Shown: positions 45,373 through 56,929 of the stretch, in pieces
Position numbering within the stretch: the first letter of the stretch is position 1
How the letters are laid out: every line of letters starts with the position of its first letter
Sequence record: PP886229
Source: Escherichia phage vB_EcoM_E9
Strand: one strand, 5' to 3'
DNA: 64,000 nt
Notes under the pieces: model-generated
Database searches by the model: none
The model's input: only the letters and a program-made list of their open reading frames with translations
Told to the model about the DNA's origin: nothing
Program-made: the position numbers and the translations under genes

Positions 45373-45643
45373 AGAGAAGTGGGAGATTTTACCACTAGTC
45401 AGTGAGGGTGGTAATGGTTGTGAAATGTACATGATACGTGGTCATGTCCCAGAACCAATTGCACTTGAGATGGTGAACAATTTTACAGATGGCTCTTACA
45501 AAGACTTAGGAGAACCAACTGTCAAGCAACAATGGGTTAAACCTGTACCAGACAGCACAGGTAACTGTAGTGTACTTTATCACGTTGTAGACCCTGCAAA
45601 ATGCAAATCTGCAATGGCAGTAACAAACGTAACTTTTGATTGA
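45365..45643 (+). CDS. hypothetical protein
   Basis: 92 aa ORF. Confidence 0.3.
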   Translation: MAKEKWEILPLVSEGGNGCEMYMIRGHVPEPIALEMVNNFTDGSYKDLGEPTVKQQWVKPVPDSTGNCSVLYHVVDPAKCKSAMAVTNVTFD

Positions 45644-46536
45644 GAGAGAAAATTATGAAAACTATTATTGAAGCCGTTGTCACCGCACAAGAGAAATTCT
45701 TCCACACAGAAAAATTTAATATCATCCAATTTCCATCTGGAGAAATTGGTGGAAACTTCTCTGAAGACTTTGTTAAGTTTACTGAGCGTAATGCTGGTAA
45801 GATTGACAATGTTATATTGACTGTGCAGGGATATGATAAAGATACACTGTTTGCATTAGCTTTGGCTAAGGATGCCGTTGACAGTCTTGTTCCATACAAA
45901 TCAGCGATGAAAACCGTTGTTTTCGGGTTCTTACCAAATGCTCGATATGACCGACATATGTTCAAAGGTGATTCAGCAGCACTGAAAGCTTTTGCCAACC
46001 TCGTTAATGCAATGGGCTTTGATGCAGTGTGTGCTCTTGACCCTCACAGTAATGTGGCAGAAAACTTATTCAAGTGCTTTCAGAGCATGAAGCAAAAAGA
46101 TGTAGCAGCACACTTTGCAAGTGACCCACGCATTGATTTCTTGGTAGCCCCAGATGCAGGTGCAGCTAAGAAGACTGAAGAGACTGCTAAAGAGGTAGAT
46201 AAGCCATACATCACAATGTCTAAAGTACGTAACCTTAAGACTGGTGAAATTACTGGTATGCGAATCCTTGATGATGTTGATTTGACAGATAAAACCGTCA
46301 TGATTCTTGATGATATTTGCGATGGGGGCCGAACCTTCATAGAAGCAGCTAAACATCTTCGTGAAGCAGGTGCAAAACGTGTGGAACTCTATGTAACTCA
46401 TGGTATTTTCTCTAAAGGTGTTGAAAGCTTACTTGACAATGGTATTGACCATATCTACACTACAAACACTTTAGGTGAAGCTAAAGACCGTGGCTTAACA
46501 CATTATGGTCAGGTTACTGTAGCAACAATTGATTAA
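45640..46536 (+). CDS. ribose-phosphate pyrophosphokinase family protein (Prs-like; candidate ADP-ribose pyrophosphokinase)
   Basis: 298 aa with phosphoribosyl-binding loop ..VMILDDICDGGRTF..; immediately upstream of a NAMPT-like gene. Confidence 0.65.
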   Translation: MREKIMKTIIEAVVTAQEKFFHTEKFNIIQFPSGEIGGNFSEDFVKFTERNAGKIDNVILTVQGYDKDTLFALALAKDAVDSLVPYKSAMKTVVFGFLPNARYDRHMFKGDSAALKAFANLVNAMGFDAVCALDPHSNVAENLFKCFQSMKQKDVAAHFASDPRIDFLVAPDAGAAKKTEETAKEVDKPYITMSKVRNLKTGEITGMRILDDVDLTDKTVMILDDICDGGRTFIEAAKHLREAGAKRVELYVTHGIFSKGVESLLDNGIDHIYTTNTLGEAKDRGLTHYGQVTVATID

Positions 46537-46581: not shown

Positions 46582-48363
46582 ATGACTAAATCACTTTATG
46601 CAGTACCAGCAGGTTTAAACGCAGATGCTTACAAATCTGGTCACATCTACCAGTATCCTAGCGCAACAGAGTACTTGATGTTCAACCTGACACCACGTAG
46701 TGACAAATGGTTTAACAGCCCCTTAGCAATTGATGGTGTAGTTGCTTTCGGTATTCAACGTTTTGTTAAAGATTACCTGATAGACCACTGGAACGCCACA
46801 TTCTTCGAACGTGACAAAAAAGAAGCAATTGACGAAATCTTAGAAGTCATGAACGGTGTTCTGGGTAAAGATGCTATTGGTCGAGAACATTGGGAAGCAC
46901 TCCACGACTTAGGTTATCTACCAGTCGAAGTCTACGCTGTAGAAGAAGGTACAGTTGTCCCTATGCGTGTGCCAATGATTGTCTTCCAGAACACTGTTTC
47001 AGGTTTCCATTGGGTAGCGGGGTATCTGGAAGATGCTTTCTCTGCTGAGATTTGGAAGGCTTGTACCATTGCAACTATTGCATTGCACTACAAACGTATC
47101 TGTAAGAAGTGGGCTGACCTTACTTGTGACAACGACTTGCATTTACCTTATCAGTGCCATGACTTTGCTATGCGTGGTATGTCTGGCTTTACTGATGACG
47201 CATTTAACGCTGTAGGCCACTTAACCAGCTTTAAAGGGACTGATAGCTTCCCTGCTGTGTATACAGCTAAACGCATCTATGGACAGTCCTACCCAATCTC
47301 TGATATTGGTAGTTCTGTACCAGCCACTGAACATTCTGTAATGTGTGCAAACATTGCTTGGGAAGGTGGTAACGAGTTGATTGAAGAAGAAAGACGCTTT
47401 AAAGGTGAGTTACAAACCTTCCGTCGTTTCTTAACAGAAACTTACCCAACTGGTATTGCAAGTGTTGTTTCAGATACTTATAACTTCTGGAGAACTGTAT
47501 CAGTCATATTGCCAGAACTCCGTAAAGAGATTATGGAACGTGATGGCAAACTGGTAATTCGTCCTGATTCTGGAGACCCTGTACATATTGTCACAGGATA
47601 CAAAGCAATCCATTTAGAGTGTGCTAAAAAGGCTTATTACGAACACCTAAGTAAGCTGGAAGCCAGCGACACAATGCTGAATGCTGTTCTGAACATGAAG
47701 CTTGAAAACATCAATTATGGTATTGCTGGATGGCTACTGTCAGAAGGTTACGAAATGGTTGTTGACAGAGAAGACTTTGAAGTTGCTGATACAGTGCTGT
47801 TGAAAAATGCTTATGTGGTTGGTTCTGCAAACGTTGTAACACGTCCTGTAGCGGAGATTGATGGAGCTATCAAGACACTGTATAACATCTTTGGAGGAAC
47901 TATCAACTCTAAAGGTTTTAAAGTACTGGATGAGCACATTGGCCTTATTTATGGTGACTCTATCACGTTGGAACGTGCAAACGAAATCCTAAAGCGTTTG
48001 TATGAAATGGGTTTTGCAAGCTCTAACGTAGTGTTTGGTGTAGGTTCTTACACTTACCAGTACATGACTCGTGACACCTTTGCATTTGCTGTCAAAGCAA
48101 CTCTTGCAAGCATTGGTGGTAAAGAGATTATGCTCGCAAAAGACCCTAAAACAGATAGTGGTGTTAAGAAGTCTGCTTTTGGTGGTGTAGCACCTATGTG
48201 GGATGGTGAAAATCTGAAAGCTGTAGATGGCTATGGGTTCCAGAGCTTTGCAGATGCACTTGAACACCCAGCTTGTGCTTTACGCCTAGTCTTTAGTGAC
48301 TCTGAGCAGTTCGGCTACACAACTCTTGGTGATATTCGAAATAATATTGACAAGCAGCTTTAA
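46582..48363 (+). CDS. nicotinamide phosphoribosyltransferase family protein (NAMPT-like)
   Basis: 593 aa; N-terminal ..DAYKSGHIYQYP.. resembles the NAMPT DSYK.THY.QYP motif (recollection). Confidence 0.75.
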   Translation: MTKSLYAVPAGLNADAYKSGHIYQYPSATEYLMFNLTPRSDKWFNSPLAIDGVVAFGIQRFVKDYLIDHWNATFFERDKKEAIDEILEVMNGVLGKDAIGREHWEALHDLGYLPVEVYAVEEGTVVPMRVPMIVFQNTVSGFHWVAGYLEDAFSAEIWKACTIATIALHYKRICKKWADLTCDNDLHLPYQCHDFAMRGMSGFTDDAFNAVGHLTSFKGTDSFPAVYTAKRIYGQSYPISDIGSSVPATEHSVMCANIAWEGGNELIEEERRFKGELQTFRRFLTETYPTGIASVVSDTYNFWRTVSVILPELRKEIMERDGKLVIRPDSGDPVHIVTGYKAIHLECAKKAYYEHLSKLEASDTMLNAVLNMKLENINYGIAGWLLSEGYEMVVDREDFEVADTVLLKNAYVVGSANVVTRPVAEIDGAIKTLYNIFGGTINSKGFKVLDEHIGLIYGDSITLERANEILKRLYEMGFASSNVVFGVGSYTYQYMTRDTFAFAVKATLASIGGKEIMLAKDPKTDSGVKKSAFGGVAPMWDGENLKAVDGYGFQSFADALEHPACALRLVFSDSEQFGYTTLGDIRNNIDKQL

Positions 48364-48378
48364 AAGTATATGATAAGA

Positions 48379-48399
48379 GGCTCCTACGGGAGCCTTTTT
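48379..48399 (+). terminator. rho-independent terminator
   Basis: GGCTCC-tac-GGGAGCC followed by TTTTT. Confidence 0.6.
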
Positions 48400-48416: not shown

Positions 48417-48752
48417 ATGAAAATCAAAGAGATGAACATCAACATTGTCTTAGAAGAACGTTGGGAGAACATCAAGAAGCCTGAAAATGGTCATAAGTTC
48501 CTCAACAAAATCTTAGTAGCAGCTAAAGAAGAACTGACTGGCAAGATTGCAGCAGCAATCACAATAAAGGTCTGTGTAAAAGGTCTTCCAGACAATCACC
48601 AATTTGCACTTGACGAGTTTAAAGAAAGCTTCTACAATCCAAACAAACAGATGCTTGAAAGTAACTTTGCAGTATCTACAAGTATCGTCCATGACAGAAG
48701 CTTTATCCTTTACAAGAATATGAGAGGTGAGTCATGCAAGCATATTGGATAG
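48417..48752 (+). CDS. hypothetical protein
   Basis: 111 aa ORF. Confidence 0.3.
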   Translation: MKIKEMNINIVLEERWENIKKPENGHKFLNKILVAAKEELTGKIAAAITIKVCVKGLPDNHQFALDEFKESFYNPNKQMLESNFAVSTSIVHDRSFILYKNMRGESCKHIG

Positions 48753-48910
48753 AAATTTTACTGTCACTTGGTAGTGTAGCAGTATTTGTTTACCTTCTTT
48801 GCAAGTACTATGCAGAGCACAAAAAATGTGACTACTGTAATGGGGAAGGTTATACAAGAGCAGGTTGTTGCCCTATGTGTGGCGGTTCTGGTAAAATGTT
48901 TAATAAGTAA
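48734..48910 (+). CDS. small membrane-anchored zinc-finger protein (58 aa, absent from ORF track)
   Basis: ATG 48734 with RBS gaggtg; MQAYWIEILLSLGSVAVFVYLLCKYYAEHKKCDYCNGEGYTRAGCCPMCGGSGKMFNK: one TM helix plus two CxxCxGxG motifs. Confidence 0.4.
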   Translation: MQAYWIEILLSLGSVAVFVYLLCKYYAEHKKCDYCNGEGYTRAGCCPMCGGSGKMFNK

Positions 48911-48938: not shown

Positions 48939-51305
48939 ATGCGCATGGTAAACGACCACGCAGAAGTGATTAAGAGTTCAACTTCTTTAGAGACGTCTCA
49001 AGCACAGATTACAATGACACCCGAAATGTTCAGCCTTTTGAGTTCTGGTGTATATACCTTTAAAGAAAGGGCAGTGATTCGTGAACTGTCATGTAACGCA
49101 GTAGATGCTCAGAAAGAAGCTGGAAAAGAGAACATCCCGTTCCATGTGCATTTACCTACTCGTTTTGAGCCTTACTTTGAAGTCCGTGATTTTGGAACTG
49201 GATTGACTCATGATAAAGTTATGAGTTTGTACCTAAACTACGGGGCTTCTACGAAGAATGACTCTAATGACTACATTGGTGCAATGGGTATCGGCTCAAA
49301 ATCCCCATTTGCAATTGCTCAGTCATTCACAGTGTCTAGTTATGTTGATGGTGTTGTTAATAAGTACTCTGTTTACCTTGAGAATGGTATCCCTCAAGTA
49401 ACTAAGCTAACCACCAACCCAACGAATGAACCTAATGGTTTAGCTGTACGTGTAGCAGTTGCTGACCATCGTATTTCAAAGTTCTTTGAAGAGGCTGGTA
49501 ATGTATACTCATACTTTGCTGTAAAACCAGAAAGTAATATCGAGTATGACGATGTATTAGCAGATATGAACGTCATTGCCCGTGAAGAAGGTGTTTATGA
49601 TGCCATGATTCATAAGCAAAGCTGGCGTTCTAGTGGTAACAGGACAGAGTTTAATGTGGTGATGGGTAACATTGCCTACCCTGTTAACATGGAAGCATTA
49701 CTTGGTGATGATTTCTTCAAAGTATTGCCAGAATTTTTCCGTAGGAGCGTAGACCTTGTAAACATCTACATGCCTATTGGTTCAGTTGCTATTGCAGCTT
49801 CTCGTGAAGCATTGCAGATGAATGACACGACAAAAAATGTTATCATTGAGGCTACTAAAAAGATAACTGAAGCCATTACAAAGGATGTTATCAAGAAAGT
49901 TAATAGTCAACCTACACTCATGGATGCTGCACAGGCTTATGCTGAGTTACGTTTGAACTCACGAGAGATGTTTAATGCTGTGTGTCCAAAGCTAGAGTGG
50001 GGTGGTGTTAAGCTTGATTCTCTGGAAGAAGAATTACTAAACATTCGTCGTGGAATTATCTACGCAGAAGACGGCTCAGTCATTTACGAACGTGACGGTA
50101 AAGGTAATATTAAGGTTGATAGGAACGGGAACAATATCCCTAAAGTAGATTATCTTTATGACCCAGTTGCTTATGTCAAGTTCAACTCTTTAGAGAGTAA
50201 GATTCGTGCAACATCGCTTTCCTACACTCAAGAGGCAAGCATGTTCAATATCTTTGGCGCAATGCGTAAAAGTCAAATTGAACAGTTTTTGTTTGTTATA
50301 AATGACCGTCGAAATAAAAACGGTACTGAGAAGACTGTAGGACGCAACCAAATCTTGCGTGGTGCATGTCGAGACTATGCCAGTGAGTCAAGTCTGTTTC
50401 ACAGATACAATGGTATTGTCTTTGTATTCTCTACAGAGAAAGAGCTAGACGACTTAATCAATCTGCACAAACTTGATAAAAGCTTGTTAAAGATTGTGAA
50501 GATGTCTGATAAGGAACACCATTATCAGCGTAAAGAAGCTGTAAGAGGCGTTGTAAAACTTTGGAAAGCTGTTCCAGCAGAAGGTGTGGCTTCCTATAAA
50601 GAGGTTTCAGAGGACTTTGATACAATTGAAGAACCTCAGCTTTACATTAAGGCAGTCGGTGACACAGTTGATGGTGAATGTTTTTGCTCATCTCCAGAAG
50701 ATGTAGCTAAGTCAGTTGCTAATGTTACAGGTAAGACAGTCTATGTTTTCCGAAAAGCAAATTGGAAAAAGATACCAGAAGACTGGATTGAAGTAGATGA
50801 GAAACTCTTGAATGACAGCTTAACTGATGTTCATTGGATTAATCATAACAGGTATATGACACGTATCTATATGAATGGTGTCCTTGACCTTACAAGCAGT
50901 TGGATTATTGCCAGAAACTTTACGTTCAATAACAGGAAGATTTCTCGTGGCTATTGTTATTCACGGGATACAAACAAAACTATCTTCTTAGAAGGTAATG
51001 AAGATGCTGTAGAGGCAATGTTTGGTAAAATCCAATACGTTGCTGCACCGTTTGCATATACTTACACTATTAGTAGGCTGCAAACTTTGAAAGACTGCCT
51101 TGACAATGATACAAAGCTGTACAAGAAAATTAAGAAAGCTGGTGACCGCATGGTCATTAAGGTGACAAACTACCTTTCAAAAAGAAAACAAGAAAACTTC
51201 TTGCTTTCTCATTTAGATTGGAATAAAGTGTCACCCATCGAAGTGAGTAAGTTCTTAGGCTTTGATGTGAAGTGTGTTCCAGAAGGGACTACAATTTACG
51301 ATTAA
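48939..51305 (+). CDS. rIIA: rIIA-like protein
   Basis: 788 aa; N-terminal GHKL-type ATPase motifs ..RAVIRELSCNAVDA.., ..RDFGTGLT.., ..GAMGIGSKSPFAIA.., ..PIGSVAIAASREALQMNDTTKNVI.. closely paralleling T4 rIIA (recollection). Confidence 0.8.
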   Translation: MRMVNDHAEVIKSSTSLETSQAQITMTPEMFSLLSSGVYTFKERAVIRELSCNAVDAQKEAGKENIPFHVHLPTRFEPYFEVRDFGTGLTHDKVMSLYLNYGASTKNDSNDYIGAMGIGSKSPFAIAQSFTVSSYVDGVVNKYSVYLENGIPQVTKLTTNPTNEPNGLAVRVAVADHRISKFFEEAGNVYSYFAVKPESNIEYDDVLADMNVIAREEGVYDAMIHKQSWRSSGNRTEFNVVMGNIAYPVNMEALLGDDFFKVLPEFFRRSVDLVNIYMPIGSVAIAASREALQMNDTTKNVIIEATKKITEAITKDVIKKVNSQPTLMDAAQAYAELRLNSREMFNAVCPKLEWGGVKLDSLEEELLNIRRGIIYAEDGSVIYERDGKGNIKVDRNGNNIPKVDYLYDPVAYVKFNSLESKIRATSLSYTQEASMFNIFGAMRKSQIEQFLFVINDRRNKNGTEKTVGRNQILRGACRDYASESSLFHRYNGIVFVFSTEKELDDLINLHKLDKSLLKIVKMSDKEHHYQRKEAVRGVVKLWKAVPAEGVASYKEVSEDFDTIEEPQLYIKAVGDTVDGECFCSSPEDVAKSVANVTGKTVYVFRKANWKKIPEDWIEVDEKLLNDSLTDVHWINHNRYMTRIYMNGVLDLTSSWIIARNFTFNNRKISRGYCYSRDTNKTIFLEGNEDAVEAMFGKIQYVAAPFAYTYTISRLQTLKDCLDNDTKLYKKIKKAGDRMVIKVTNYLSKRKQENFLLSHLDWNKVSPIEVSKFLGFDVKCVPEGTTIYD

Positions 51306-51310
51306 AGTGT

Positions 51311-51340
51311 TTGACAAGGGGCTTTGAAGCCCCTTAGAAT
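51311..51340 (+). promoter_or_regulatory. sigma70-like promoter (TTGACA-N18-TAGAAT) overlapping a hairpin
   Basis: Hexamers flank GGGGCTTtgAAGCCCC hairpin between rIIA and rIIB. Confidence 0.35.
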
Positions 51341-51384
51341 AGCCTTACAAAATGATTTATTAACTAACAAGAGAGAGTAATAAG

Positions 51385-52494
51385 ATGACTACTAAAACTA
51401 AAGCACAGATTGACGCAGAAATTTACGAACTGGTTAAAGAAGGTAAGCTGACTAAAACAGCTATTGCACAGAAGTTCAATACTTCAACCCGTTCAGTTGG
51501 TCGTGCTGTAGAGCGTCATGAAGCAACCTTAAAAGGTAAGAAGAAGGCGACTTCTACACCAGCTAAGAAGACCCTAAAGCAAGTTGCTAAGTCAGTTAAA
51601 AAGAAAGCTGACAAACCAGTTGAAAAGGCCGTTAAAGACTCTGTACAGAAAGCTCCAGTAAATAAACTGCATGAAGCTATGCAGAAAGATGACAAGATTG
51701 AGTACATGATTACTGGTGACTCTGTAATTATGACTTACGGTTCAGAATCTGAAATTGTTGAGTCTACTCATCCGAACTATCAAGAGATTGTAGTTCATGT
51801 TGTGAAAGGTGAGTTCAAGAAAGCATTTGAACTGATGAACATTCGTAAGTCTATCGAAAACTTCACTCAGGGTGCTATCACAATCAAAGGTGACAAGCTC
51901 TTCTACGGTGCTGTTGAGATGCGTTCTACTCTGGTTGACCGTATTCTTCACATGATGAAAACTGGTGATAAAGGTTTTGAACGACTTGTAATGTTCTTCG
52001 AAAAACTGATGGAAAACCCATCTAAAGATTCTGTAGAACAACTTTGGGGATTTGTATCACACCTTGATGTTGAAATTGATGAAGAAGGCTACATCATTGG
52101 TTGGAAGAAAGTCTCTACTCGTGAAGGCAAGCTGGTTGACTCTCACACCTACAAAGTGCCTAATGATTTGGGTAACATTGTAGAGATGCCACGTTGGATG
52201 GTTGATAACAACCGTAACGTAACTTGCTCTCAAGGTCTTCATGTTGGTGCTTGGGATTATGTTCGTTGCTTCTCAGGTGATACCATCCTGAAGGTTCGTG
52301 TCCATCCACGAGATGTTGTATCTGTTCCAACTGATTACAACGATATGAAGATGCGTTCCTCTCGTTATGAAGTTGCAGCAATCGTTGATAATCAACGTAA
52401 AGTGCTGAAAGCATGGGATGGTAAGACTGAAGCTTTGCATGTCATCGTTGGTACTGCTGGTGAACTCATCTCTCAACGTAAACGTGAAATCTAA
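51385..52494 (+). CDS. rIIB: rIIB-like protein
   Basis: 369 aa; ..LFYGAVEMRSTLVDRIL.., ..CSQGLHVG.., ..VRVHPRDVVSVPTDYNDMKMRSSRYEV.. parallel T4 rIIB (recollection); directly after rIIA. Confidence 0.8.
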   Translation: MTTKTKAQIDAEIYELVKEGKLTKTAIAQKFNTSTRSVGRAVERHEATLKGKKKATSTPAKKTLKQVAKSVKKKADKPVEKAVKDSVQKAPVNKLHEAMQKDDKIEYMITGDSVIMTYGSESEIVESTHPNYQEIVVHVVKGEFKKAFELMNIRKSIENFTQGAITIKGDKLFYGAVEMRSTLVDRILHMMKTGDKGFERLVMFFEKLMENPSKDSVEQLWGFVSHLDVEIDEEGYIIGWKKVSTREGKLVDSHTYKVPNDLGNIVEMPRWMVDNNRNVTCSQGLHVGAWDYVRCFSGDTILKVRVHPRDVVSVPTDYNDMKMRSSRYEVAAIVDNQRKVLKAWDGKTEALHVIVGTAGELISQRKREI

Positions 52495-52508
52495 TAAGTA
52501 ATTTCTTA

Positions 52509-52534
52509 AAAGGCTGCTTCGGCGGCCTTTTTTA
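52509..52534 (+). terminator. rho-independent terminator
   Basis: GGCTGC-ttcg-GCGGCC followed by TTTTTT. Confidence 0.6.
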
Positions 52535-52594
52535 TTTGTATTTTGTGCAGAGTGCTGTATAATTGTTGTCACGATAAACTAAACAGGAGAACCA

Positions 52595-53143
52595 ATGAAG
52601 AAATTGATTCTAGGATTGTGCTTAATGTTTACAGCACATTTATCTTATGCAGTTGACTGCCCAGAGCTATCAATTAGCCAAAAAGTTAACATGTTAAAAG
52701 CTTACCAGTATGGTGAGAACAACATGGGGAAAGGCTGGGGTATTACTCTAGCAGCTATAGCCTTACAAGAGTCAGAGTTAGGTCTGAAGGTAGAGAATAA
52801 AAAGACCCATGACTATGGTATTTTCCAGAATCACTTGAAGACTGTTGTAAAGCGTAACAAAATTAGTCCTAATGTGGCTAAAAAGAAACTCTTAAAAGAT
52901 TTTGACTATGCAGCAAAAGAGACACATAAAGAGCTTGAGTTTTGGACTAAGGTACATGGTCACCCGAAGTCAAAGAAGACTTTACAAAAAGTTTTAGCAT
53001 CATATAATGCTGGGTATTCGTACAAAATTCCTAAAGCTAAGAAATACTCTCAAGATGTCTATAACAATATGAAAGTTATTGCTCAATGTGAATTTGCAAC
53101 AAACATTTCTAAGGTAAATCATGAAAAAATTAAGAAAGTCTGA
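52595..53143 (+). CDS. secreted lytic transglycosylase-like protein (endolysin candidate)
   Basis: Signal peptide MKKLILGLCLMFTAHLSYA then ..IALQESELG.. resembling the SLT-domain catalytic Glu-Ser motif. Confidence 0.4.
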   Translation: MKKLILGLCLMFTAHLSYAVDCPELSISQKVNMLKAYQYGENNMGKGWGITLAAIALQESELGLKVENKKTHDYGIFQNHLKTVVKRNKISPNVAKKKLLKDFDYAAKETHKELEFWTKVHGHPKSKKTLQKVLASYNAGYSYKIPKAKKYSQDVYNNMKVIAQCEFATNISKVNHEKIKKV

Positions 53144-53816
53144 TGAAGTCCTGTGCCACGCTTATGACTTGCATCCTCATGAGTTAGGTCTTGATTCCTG
53201 TGTATGGACTCCAGAACAGTGCAGGGATTTTGAAGACACTGCAAGAGAAGTTGTATGTTCACTTGAAGAGTTCCACACATCAGAACCAATTGTGAACGTT
53301 GTGGATAAAGAAACTGGACAAGCTATAGGTGTAAGTCGTGACAGTTTAGTCATAGTCAATAAAGACCTTGTAGAAAAAGGTAACCTCATCTTAGCAGATA
53401 TTGATGGTGTTCTTACAAATTTTAATCACGAAGATTGCTCAACGGAATTGACTGATGGGTCATTCTCACAATACACTAATCTTCTTGACTCTGTAAGAGC
53501 AAAACCAACATATGTTTTTAGTATTATTGATGCAATTGCTAATCATGCTGCCATTGGACTCTTGACAGCGAGAGGTGAATCTCAGAGAATACCTACTGAG
53601 ATGTTCTTAAGGCATAACATAGAGCATGACTACATGCTTTTTATGCGTGGTTTTGGAACTAACTCTATAAGTGCAGAAAGTTTGAAAGTGAGGATGATTC
53701 AGTCTTGCATTCTTCCTTATTTTAATATAGTATGCTTTATAGAAGATACAGAGAAGAATGTTCAGAAGGTTAACAGAATCCTTCCACACATTAAAACCAT
53801 GTTAGTTAAACATTGA
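53121..53816 (+). CDS. putative HAD-superfamily hydrolase
   Basis: ..ILADIDGVLTN.. resembles HAD motif I (DxDG[T/V]); weak. Confidence 0.3.
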   Translation: MKKLRKSDEVLCHAYDLHPHELGLDSCVWTPEQCRDFEDTAREVVCSLEEFHTSEPIVNVVDKETGQAIGVSRDSLVIVNKDLVEKGNLILADIDGVLTNFNHEDCSTELTDGSFSQYTNLLDSVRAKPTYVFSIIDAIANHAAIGLLTARGESQRIPTEMFLRHNIEHDYMLFMRGFGTNSISAESLKVRMIQSCILPYFNIVCFIEDTEKNVQKVNRILPHIKTMLVKH

Positions 53817-54344: not shown

Positions 54345-54692
54345 ATGACATTTAAAGAGTTCTGCCAAGCTACTTTCATAATTGTTTTCTTAGTTGGAGC
54401 AGGTGTCTGGGGAGGATACTCTTACAGAGACTACCAAGTTGCTGAGACTGAGCTAAATAATGAGAAACTAATAAGTGTTGCTAAAGATGCTTATCAGGAA
54501 GGTTTAGCCACACTCAGCACCAATTACAAAAATGATTTGAAAGATGTGCTTGCTAAGAATAAGCATACAAAAGAGGTACTAACATATGAAAAGACTAAGC
54601 CAGAGTTTTATAATGTTTGTGTTACTGATAATTATGTCAGGGTGTTCAACGAACAAAGCGAACAGTACATTCAAAAACTACCAAGTAAGTGA
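54345..54692 (+). CDS. i-spanin-like protein (Rz-like)
   Basis: 115 aa; N-terminal TM segment (FIIVFLVGAGVWGGY) then helical periplasmic region; 3' end overlaps a lipoprotein ORF in another frame. Confidence 0.4.
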   Translation: MTFKEFCQATFIIVFLVGAGVWGGYSYRDYQVAETELNNEKLISVAKDAYQEGLATLSTNYKNDLKDVLAKNKHTKEVLTYEKTKPEFYNVCVTDNYVRVFNEQSEQYIQKLPSK

Positions 54693-54855
54693 GAGTGACA
54701 AGTACACTCAAGAAGAATCAAGATTCACTGTCAAAGGTAATACTGGTAGTGATGTGGCAGCAGCCCTTGAATTTTATCGTGATGGTTTTTACCAGTGCAC
54801 AATAAAAGCTAATAACCTTATTGATATGATTTTATTAGGGAACAAACAGCAATGA
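54586..54855 (+). CDS. o-spanin-like lipoprotein (Rz1-like)
   Basis: 89 aa; MKRLSQSFIMFVLLIIMSGC signal peptide with lipobox; start embedded in the 3' end of the preceding gene. Confidence 0.4.
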   Translation: MKRLSQSFIMFVLLIIMSGCSTNKANSTFKNYQVSESDKYTQEESRFTVKGNTGSDVAAALEFYRDGFYQCTIKANNLIDMILLGNKQQ

Positions 54856-56143: not shown

Positions 56144-56929
56144 ATGGGTATTGTAAAAATCATCAATGGGGATATCTTCTCAGCATTTGATAAAGGTAAG
56201 TTTGATATTATTGGTCACGGTTGCAACTGTATGAACTTAATGGGTGCAGGTATCGCTGACAAGATTTCTAAACTTTACCCAAAAGCATATGAGACTGATA
56301 CAGAAGTTTATCTGTATGCAGGTGGTATAGGTCACAAACCCTGTGAAAATTTACTAGGTAATTTCTCTGTAGCACGTTTAAAACAAGGTCGTATAGCTAA
56401 TCTTTACACTCAGCTTAAGACTGGTAAAGATGCCCGATACAGTGCTTTAGAGTCATCTTTGAAACAGCTTAACAGATACTGTGAAGTCAATCAGTTGAAG
56501 AAAGTCGGGTTACCTATGATTGGTGCAGGTATCGGTGGGCTAGACCCTCAAGCCATCACAGTTATCATTAATCAGGTGATGAAGAGTGTAGATGTTTATC
56601 TGTATGTCTACGAAGGAGAGATGTACCACAAGTTACGCTCAGGTTGGAAGAACTACTGTGAGCCAGAATACTTTGCAGGTGTAGTAACGTTCACAGATGA
56701 TGCAGTTACCCTCTTCAGACGAAGAAAAGGTAAGATACATCAAAGTAACCCTCCGGTTGAGAAGATGTCTCTAAGTAACGCTCTAGTTACCCACATGTCG
56801 AAGGGCAATCACAGGATAGCCGTAACATTTGGCAGTGATGCAGATACATATATCTATGCAAGAACTGATGAGGATATCGAGGAAATTTTCTCATCATCAG
56901 AAGTTACCTTCTTAGACGCAAAGAGCTAA
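56144..56929 (+). CDS. macro-domain protein (ADP-ribose-binding/processing)
   Basis: ..INGDIFSAFDKGKFDIIGHGCNCMNLMGAGIADKI.. and ..KVGLPMIGAGIGGLD.. match the two glycine-rich macro-domain signatures (recollection). Confidence 0.5.
   Translation: MGIVKIINGDIFSAFDKGKFDIIGHGCNCMNLMGAGIADKISKLYPKAYETDTEVYLYAGGIGHKPCENLLGNFSVARLKQGRIANLYTQLKTGKDARYSALESSLKQLNRYCEVNQLKKVGLPMIGAGIGGLDPQAITVIINQVMKSVDVYLYVYEGEMYHKLRSGWKNYCEPEYFAGVVTFTDDAVTLFRRRKGKIHQSNPPVEKMSLSNALVTHMSKGNHRIAVTFGSDADTYIYARTDEDIEEIFSSSEVTFLDAKS

Follow-up and report, generated by a model that had tools for sequence, protein, structure and literature searches.

The window analysed here is a 64,000-nucleotide stretch of DNA from Escherichia phage vB_EcoM_E9 (sequence record PP886229), of which positions 48939 to 52494 are occupied by two adjacent genes. 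We identify this pair, with a probability of about 0.9, as the rIIA-rIIB pair of a Felixounavirus (a Felix O1-like myovirus), homologous to rIIA and rIIB of phage T4. The rIIA gene lies directly 5' of rIIB on the same (+) strand, with a 79-bp spacer between them, an arrangement common to phages Bas63, SUSP1, Pr103Blw and T4. Each ATG start codon follows a Shine-Dalgarno-like, purine-rich ribosome-binding sequence, AAGAGGAAAGTATT in front of rIIA and AAGAGAGAGTAATAAG in front of rIIB. The two genes, with the evidence on which each assignment rests, are as follows.

48939..51305, + strand: rIIA gene, 788 residues, ATG start; open reading frame (ORF), family phrog_612, similarity to T4 RIIA, 98% identity to Bas63 gp84, rIIA label in relatives
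51385..52494, + strand: rIIB gene, 369 residues, ATG start; ORF, family phrog_609, similarity to T4 RIIB, 84% identity to Bas63 gp85 and 80% to SUSP1 RIIB

Kinship with T4 and Felix O1-like phages

An earlier, sequence-only reading of the window had proposed an rIIA/rIIB-like pair at this position. Both ORFs were found at exactly the coordinates it gave, and the similarity of their products to the T4 reference proteins (RIIA, NP_049616; RIIB, NP_049889) is significant in BLASTP and in profile searches, and far above chance by BLASTP, PHROG and hhalign. By BLASTP, RIIA residues 24-317 align with T4 RIIA residues 22-307 at 32% identity (E = 6e-37), with no further significant segment outside residues 24-317, and RIIB residues 127-339 align with T4 RIIB residues 102-312 at 43% identity (E = 3e-60), the first 126 residues giving no alignment. 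The motif-by-motif correspondence with T4 that had been claimed for both proteins is accordingly found in the N-terminal ~40% of RIIA and the C-terminal ~60% of RIIB, and is not seen elsewhere by BLASTP. The C-terminal ~470 residues of RIIA can be aligned with T4 at the profile level only: compared by hhalign with a profile of 60 RIIA homologues, T4 RIIA matched with a probability of 100% (E = 3.5e-57) over 543 columns that extend as far as T4 residue 586.

The PHROG assignments agree for the two phages. Residues 1-770 of the window RIIA match positions 1-716 of the 725 positions of phrog_612 ('RIIA', E = 1.1e-189), which is also the best PHROG match of T4 RIIA (E = 9e-250), and the window RIIB matches phrog_609 ('RIIB', E = 2.5e-89, profile positions 755-1048), likewise the best match of T4 RIIB (E = 6.6e-111, positions 751-1049). 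The window pair therefore resembles the founding members in T4 in adjacency, order (rIIA then rIIB), strand and PHROG families, as well as in the GHKL N-terminal module of RIIA (32%) and the core of RIIB (43%). It differs from them in the RIIA C-terminal region that BLASTP fails to align, in an RIIB that is 57 residues longer and whose unaligned N-terminal 126 residues comprise a helix-turn-helix, a linker rich in lysine and the first part of the core, and in its flanks, which hold genes for nicotinamide adenine dinucleotide (NAD+) salvage and spanins, as opposed to the topoisomerase, denB and ndd genes of T4.

Within the Felix O1-like phages the locus is widespread. The 3.6-kb rII stretch is 98.7% identical at the DNA level to those of Escherichia phages KEP1 and vB_EcoM-Pr103Blw, and it is matched by 270 phage records, 210 of which span at least 80% of it. 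With few exceptions these records come from Felix O1-like myoviruses, members of Felixounavirus or its relatives, whose hosts are Escherichia, Salmonella, Shigella and Citrobacter. Most annotated matching records (Felixounavirus, Suspvirus) label both genes rIIA/rIIB, with the same neighbours, and rII genes are mentioned in several Felix O1-like phage genome papers, so that the annotation is already public; the pair is nearly identical to rIIA/rIIB in hundreds of related phages and is known, not new.

Two relatives are of particular use for comparison. Bas63 (Escherichia phage JohannRWettstein, MZ501086), whose gp84 and gp85 are annotated 'membrane integrity protector rIIA/rIIB', belongs to the same genus and shares the order PRPP-synthetase-like gene, NAMPT, small ORFs, rIIA, rIIB, phrog_600, polynucleotide kinase and spanins; its RIIA is 98% identical to that of the window over 788 residues and its RIIB 84%. 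It differs in having three small ORFs before rIIA, against two in the window, and in the C-terminal third of RIIB, where the window protein is closer to the SUSP1 type. SUSP1 (NC_028808) is a member of the same subfamily, Ounavirinae, and has the same gene order, with RIIA 63% and RIIB 80% identical over their full lengths and with the promoter-like site and hairpin between rIIA and rIIB conserved, but it represents another genus (Suspvirus), and the C-terminal region of its RIIA is only 49-61% identical to that of the window.

Nothing was found that contradicts the rIIA/rIIB identity. The idea that the ORFs are chance frames, pseudogenes or mis-assigned GHKL homologues of another kind could draw on a local Pfam-A copy that lacks an rII family and returned sub-threshold matches only (HATPase_c at E = 0.12 for RIIA), but it is ruled out by PHROG matches described as full-length (E = 1e-189 and 2.5e-89), direct T4 matches (E = 6e-37 and 3e-60), 1073 RIIA and 248 RIIB database homologues, a gene order kept across genera and confident structure models.

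The published comparison of Bas63 with T4 merits a remark of its own: gp84 and gp85 are credited there with '>80% homology' to T4 RIIA/B (PMC11482910), whereas the window proteins, which share 98% and 84% of their residues with those of Bas63, proved 32% (over 294 window residues) and 43% (over 213 window residues) identical to their T4 counterparts. The phrog_609 profile, with its 1055 positions, matches RIIA at the N-terminus and RIIB at the C-terminus. A search for natural RIIA-RIIB fusions found an RIIB domain in none of the 120 RIIA homologues retrieved, which suggests that phrog_609 probably merges two families or includes rare fusions. In one metagenomic protein (P0176, 274 residues), part of the middle of RIIA (profile positions 294-435) is followed by the C-terminus of an RIIB, 99% identical to that of the window; the protein is either a natural deletion fusion resembling r1589 or an assembly artefact, and we treated it as a deletion or artefact.

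Domain architecture of RIIA and RIIB

The two proteins divide into the following segments.

49020..49928, + strand: RIIA residues ~28-330, GHKL (Bergerat-fold) ATP-binding domain and adjoining transducer-like domain, with motifs N-box, G1 and G2
49929..51302, + strand: RIIA residues 331-788, poorly conserved C-terminal region, confidently modelled
51385..51543, + strand: RIIB residues 1-53, three-helix helix-turn-helix domain
51544..51663, + strand: RIIB residues 54-93, lysine-rich linker, probably disordered, as judged from a predicted local distance difference test (pLDDT) score below 50 at residues 55-87, the lysine content and low conservation
51664..52491, + strand: RIIB residues 94-369, conserved core shared with T4 RIIB

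RIIA starts with an intact predicted GHKL ATPase module of the HSP90/MORC/MutL/topoisomerase II type in which all nucleotide-binding motifs are conserved, in agreement with the GHKL ATPase-like N-terminus recognised earlier from the sequence. The N-box (ExxxNxxD) is formed by E49, N53 and D56, the G1 motif (DxGxG) by D84-F-G86-T-G88 and the G2 motif (GxxGxG) by G114-A-M-G117-I-G119; among 60 diverse homologues E49, N53, D56, D84, G86, G114, G117 and G119 are listed as invariant, and G88 is kept in at least 90%. Many of the 1073 homologues returned by the database search carry a precomputed PF13589 (HATPase_c_3) annotation. Searched against PDB sequences, the RIIA profile matched almost exclusively HSP90-family proteins (TRAP1, E = 2.3e-5, and HtpG), across the N-box and G1, and HMMER aligned the RIIA motifs to IRELISNGSDA and IQDTGVGM of TRAP1. 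HSP90 was reached only with the profile, a single-sequence phmmer search against the PDB giving no match. The AlphaFold model of RIIA (mean pLDDT 87.6, from an alignment of homologues without the T4 sequence) gives the N-terminal module the alpha/beta sandwich of the Bergerat fold.

Likeness to the GHKL/GHL ATPases is confined to this module. The ATPase domains of HSP90/TRAP1, MORC, SMCHD1, MutL and type II topoisomerases are only 11-16% identical to RIIA, and these proteins have no counterpart of the rest of it; RIIA is a member of none of the HSP90, MORC, SMCHD1, MutL or topoisomerase subfamilies (it scores 42.7 with the NCBIfam HSP90 model, whose cutoff is 455). Structurally, the closest relatives of the module are for the most part clamps that act on DNA. 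Over the C-terminal ~450 residues mean column conservation falls to 0.21-0.29, as compared with 0.70 for residues 29-130, and no solved structural relative was found for this region, into which no structural match reaches. The window protein thereby fits the published layout of RIIA, in which a GHKL ATPase domain occupies the N-terminus and the C-terminal region behind it is variable (PMC7824862).

Homopolymer 'contingency loci' have been proposed for rIIA of T4 and other T-even phages. The A6 run at 49832-49837 is the sole homopolymer of at least six bases in the rII genes of the window, and such runs occur there at 0.29 per kb, as compared with 0.83 per kb in the whole window; with a single run and a density below the window average, the search for contingency-locus enrichment in these two genes gave no sign of it.

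The RIIB model (mean pLDDT 86.1) comprises a three-helix bundle at residues 1-53, a stretch at residues 55-87 with pLDDT below 50, and a folded alpha/beta core at residues 94-366. Residues 49-100 consist of 31% lysine and bear a net charge of +12, and the linker is the least conserved segment of the protein (52% identity to SUSP1). The family PF26926 is precomputed on 118 of the 120 homologues listed among the 248 found, including one 97% identical to the window protein (P0121); this assignment was read from the annotation of the homologues, since the family is newer than the local Pfam copy and the window RIIB was not itself scanned for it. Helix-turn-helix families are also precomputed on some homologues, the window RIIB gives a sub-threshold match to HTH_Tnp_ISL3 in local Pfam-A (E = 8e-4), and its N-terminus has a helix-turn-helix. 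Against the PDB, the RIIB profile yielded only weak helix-turn-helix matches (E of 0.098 or more), with no solved relative for the conserved core, and the single-sequence phmmer search returned noise only. Neither RIIA nor RIIB has a transmembrane segment, their highest Kyte-Doolittle means over 19 residues being 1.29 and 0.69, respectively.

The C-terminal third of RIIB (residues 233-369; 52081-52491) stands apart from the rest of the pair. It is 79-88% identical to SUSP1 and 34-82% identical to Bas63 (79-82% at residues 233-340 and 34% at residues 341-369), whereas the RIIB N-terminus and residues 161-232 are 97-100% Bas63-like and RIIA is 95-100% Bas63-like throughout. Such a mosaic sequence points to recombination or diversifying selection.

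Probable counter-defence function and proposed mode of action

That rII genes counter Rex-type exclusion, as the sequence-only reading had stated, is borne out by published work on relatives. In SUSP1, T4, MM02, EdH4 and N4, knock-down of rIIA or rIIB lowers plating only on hosts carrying lambda RexAB and has no effect on naive E. coli (PMC11879866); for T4 the conditional need for rII against RexAB is established by this study and by further literature. Bas63 deleted for g84 or g85 plates 1e4-1e5 times less efficiently on a QatABCD host, a defect that complementation largely repairs (PMC11482910). In these relatives the pair is dispensable on naive hosts, and both genes are needed against QatABCD (Bas63) or RexAB (SUSP1, T4). 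By analogy, the window pair would be the rII counter-defence module of its phage. Two points weigh against a direct transfer: the phenotypes come from relatives, not from phage vB_EcoM_E9, and the divergence of RIIB from Bas63 in its C-terminal third (34-82% identity by segment) means that the QatABCD phenotype may not carry over exactly. A specialist review keeps rIIA/rIIB apart from lysis inhibition by RI, RIII and the holin (PMC6832632), so that the term 'lysis inhibitor' in database labels is a legacy.

As to how the pair acts, we tentatively favour a mechanism that we consider possible, though short of an even chance. RIIA would be an ATP-driven dimerising clamp or chaperone working with a DNA-binding RIIB; their site of action would be cytoplasmic, at DNA or at a complex of DNA and protein, and they would keep an infection signal from the sensors of defence systems rather than plug a membrane channel directly. 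We infer this because it fits RexA being a DNA-binding sensor, because pairs of this kind are active against systems whose effectors are unrelated, and because most of the proteins closest in structure to the RIIA module are clamps acting on DNA. Several points tell against it. The literature searched yielded no data on DNA binding, ATPase activity or RIIA-RIIB interaction; the T4 proteins are traditionally described, in annotation notes, as membrane-associated 'membrane integrity protectors'; and the authors of the PhageMaP study proposed a membrane-level model (PMC11482910).

The main rival to the clamp mechanism is the model in which RIIA and RIIB are peripheral proteins of the inner membrane that themselves avert or reverse the depolarisation caused by RexB-type channels, and perhaps that caused by QatB. 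It takes its support from the description as membrane integrity protectors, given to the Bas63 proteins as well as to those of T4, from the fact that RexAB acts through membrane depolarisation, and from the proposal in the PhageMaP work of a membrane depolarisation by QatB against which rII would act. The last point is a proposal, however, not a result, and the sequences offer no support. Both proteins lack any stretch hydrophobic enough for a transmembrane helix. The DNA-binding-type helix-turn-helix and basic linker of RIIB, together with the resemblance of the RIIA module to soluble ATP-driven clamps and chaperones, also speak against it, and we consider this model unlikely.

A second alternative, which we regard as improbable, would make RIIB mainly a transcription factor tuning phage expression to host physiology, with RIIA as its ATP-dependent partner and counter-defence as an indirect consequence. 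The helix-turn-helix of RIIB would suit such a role, but on hosts lacking defence systems neither knock-down nor deletion alters the fitness of the phage, a result that one would not expect if RIIB regulated the phage programme. Moreover, T6 RIIB expressed in the absence of any phage activates a gasdermin/CARD system of Lysobacter and proves toxic (PMC10312443), a sign that it acts directly on the cell.

The clamp mechanism may be extended to the whole family, in a form that we hold rather doubtful. The rII proteins would then not protect the membrane but constitute a cytoplasmic DNA-directed machine, a MORC/MutL-like ATP-driven clamp (RIIA) with a helix-turn-helix partner (RIIB), hiding a common infection signal from several defence sensors that are unrelated to one another (RexA, QatABCD), and the mosaic, fast-diverging RIIB C-terminus of the Ounavirinae would reflect an arms race with hosts that detect RIIB in the way that the gasdermin/CARD system detects T6 RIIB.

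For the window itself, the value of these results is that of a correct annotation only: hundreds of genomes already carry this annotation, and experiments have been published on close relatives. The rII module does bear on host range on lysogens and on QatABCD-type strains, for example when Felix O1-like phages are chosen for biocontrol or therapy. The models also add small, checkable pointers to the ~70-year question of how RIIA and RIIB act, namely an intact GHL/MORC-type ATPase module, a DNA-binding-type helix-turn-helix with a basic linker, the lack of transmembrane segments and an RIIB core for which no related structure has been solved. Most of these features have been noted in the literature before, and they are not peculiar to the window sequence.

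Flanking genes and expression signals

The surroundings of the pair comprise the following genes and signals.

45640-46536, upstream: phosphoribosyl pyrophosphate (PRPP)-synthetase-like gene
46582-48363, upstream: nicotinamide phosphoribosyltransferase (NAMPT)
48347..48398, + strand: promoter-like TTGACA, 16 nt, TATGAT, and terminator-like hairpin (48375-48398) at the NAMPT end
48417-48752, between the NAMPT terminator and rIIA: small conserved ORF, 111 residues, phrog_4262
48734-48910, directly 5' of rIIA: small conserved ORF, 58 residues, phrog_3931, with a hydrophobic N-terminus and CxxC...CxxC
51311..51340, + strand: promoter-like site in the rIIA-rIIB spacer (51306-51384), TTGACA (51311-51316) and TAGAAT (51335-51340) with 18 nt between, 11 of 12 consensus matches
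52508..52541, + strand: intrinsic-terminator-like hairpin (52508-52531) and T-run, 14 nt past the rIIB stop; 10-bp stem with five G-C pairs, loop TTCG, then TTATTTGTAT
52595-53143, directly after the rIIB terminator: phrog_600 protein, 182 residues, signal-peptide-like N-terminus
53121-53816, downstream: polynucleotide kinase
54345-54692: i-spanin, phrog_1152 (E = 8e-42), overlapping the o-spanin ORF
54586-54855: o-spanin, 89 residues, lipobox-like LLIIMSGC, o-spanin label in relatives
56144-56929, downstream: macro-domain protein, Pfam Macro (E = 4.2e-7), phrog_335 'phosphatase'

The placement of the pair between an NAD+ module and lysis candidates, asserted from the sequence at the outset, proved accurate, with the PRPP-synthetase-like gene and NAMPT upstream and a spanin pair downstream. 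The same gene order is found in Pr103Blw, Bas63 and SUSP1, except that in SUSP1 an additional HNH endonuclease gene separates the PRPP-synthetase-like gene from NAMPT. The two upstream genes correspond to Bas63 g79 and g80, reported as co-essential counters of Sir2-HerA (PhageMaP preprint, PMC11482910), which places two anti-defence modules side by side. The signals at 48347..48398 probably mark the upstream boundary of a unit, drawn from spacing only, that contains the two small ORFs and rIIA; the 111- and 58-residue ORFs may thus be co-transcribed with rIIA.

The element in the rIIA-rIIB spacer is a putative promoter. The 18 nt between its two hexamers form a 7-bp G+C-rich hairpin (51317-51334), and the hexamers and stem are kept in Pr103Blw, Bas63 and SUSP1 while the loop varies (TTGA, TCAA, GAAA), which suggests selection on the structure.

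On the downstream side, three genes separate rIIB from the spanins: those for the phrog_600 protein and polynucleotide kinase, and one uncharacterised gene. The phrog_600 protein gives a sub-threshold match to Pfam SLT (lytic transglycosylase, E = 0.0012), and a promoter-like TATAAT of its own lies just 5' of its gene. The nearness of rII to the spanins is no evidence of a role in lysis. Farther downstream, the macro-domain protein could be another player in conflicts over NAD+ or ADP-ribose.

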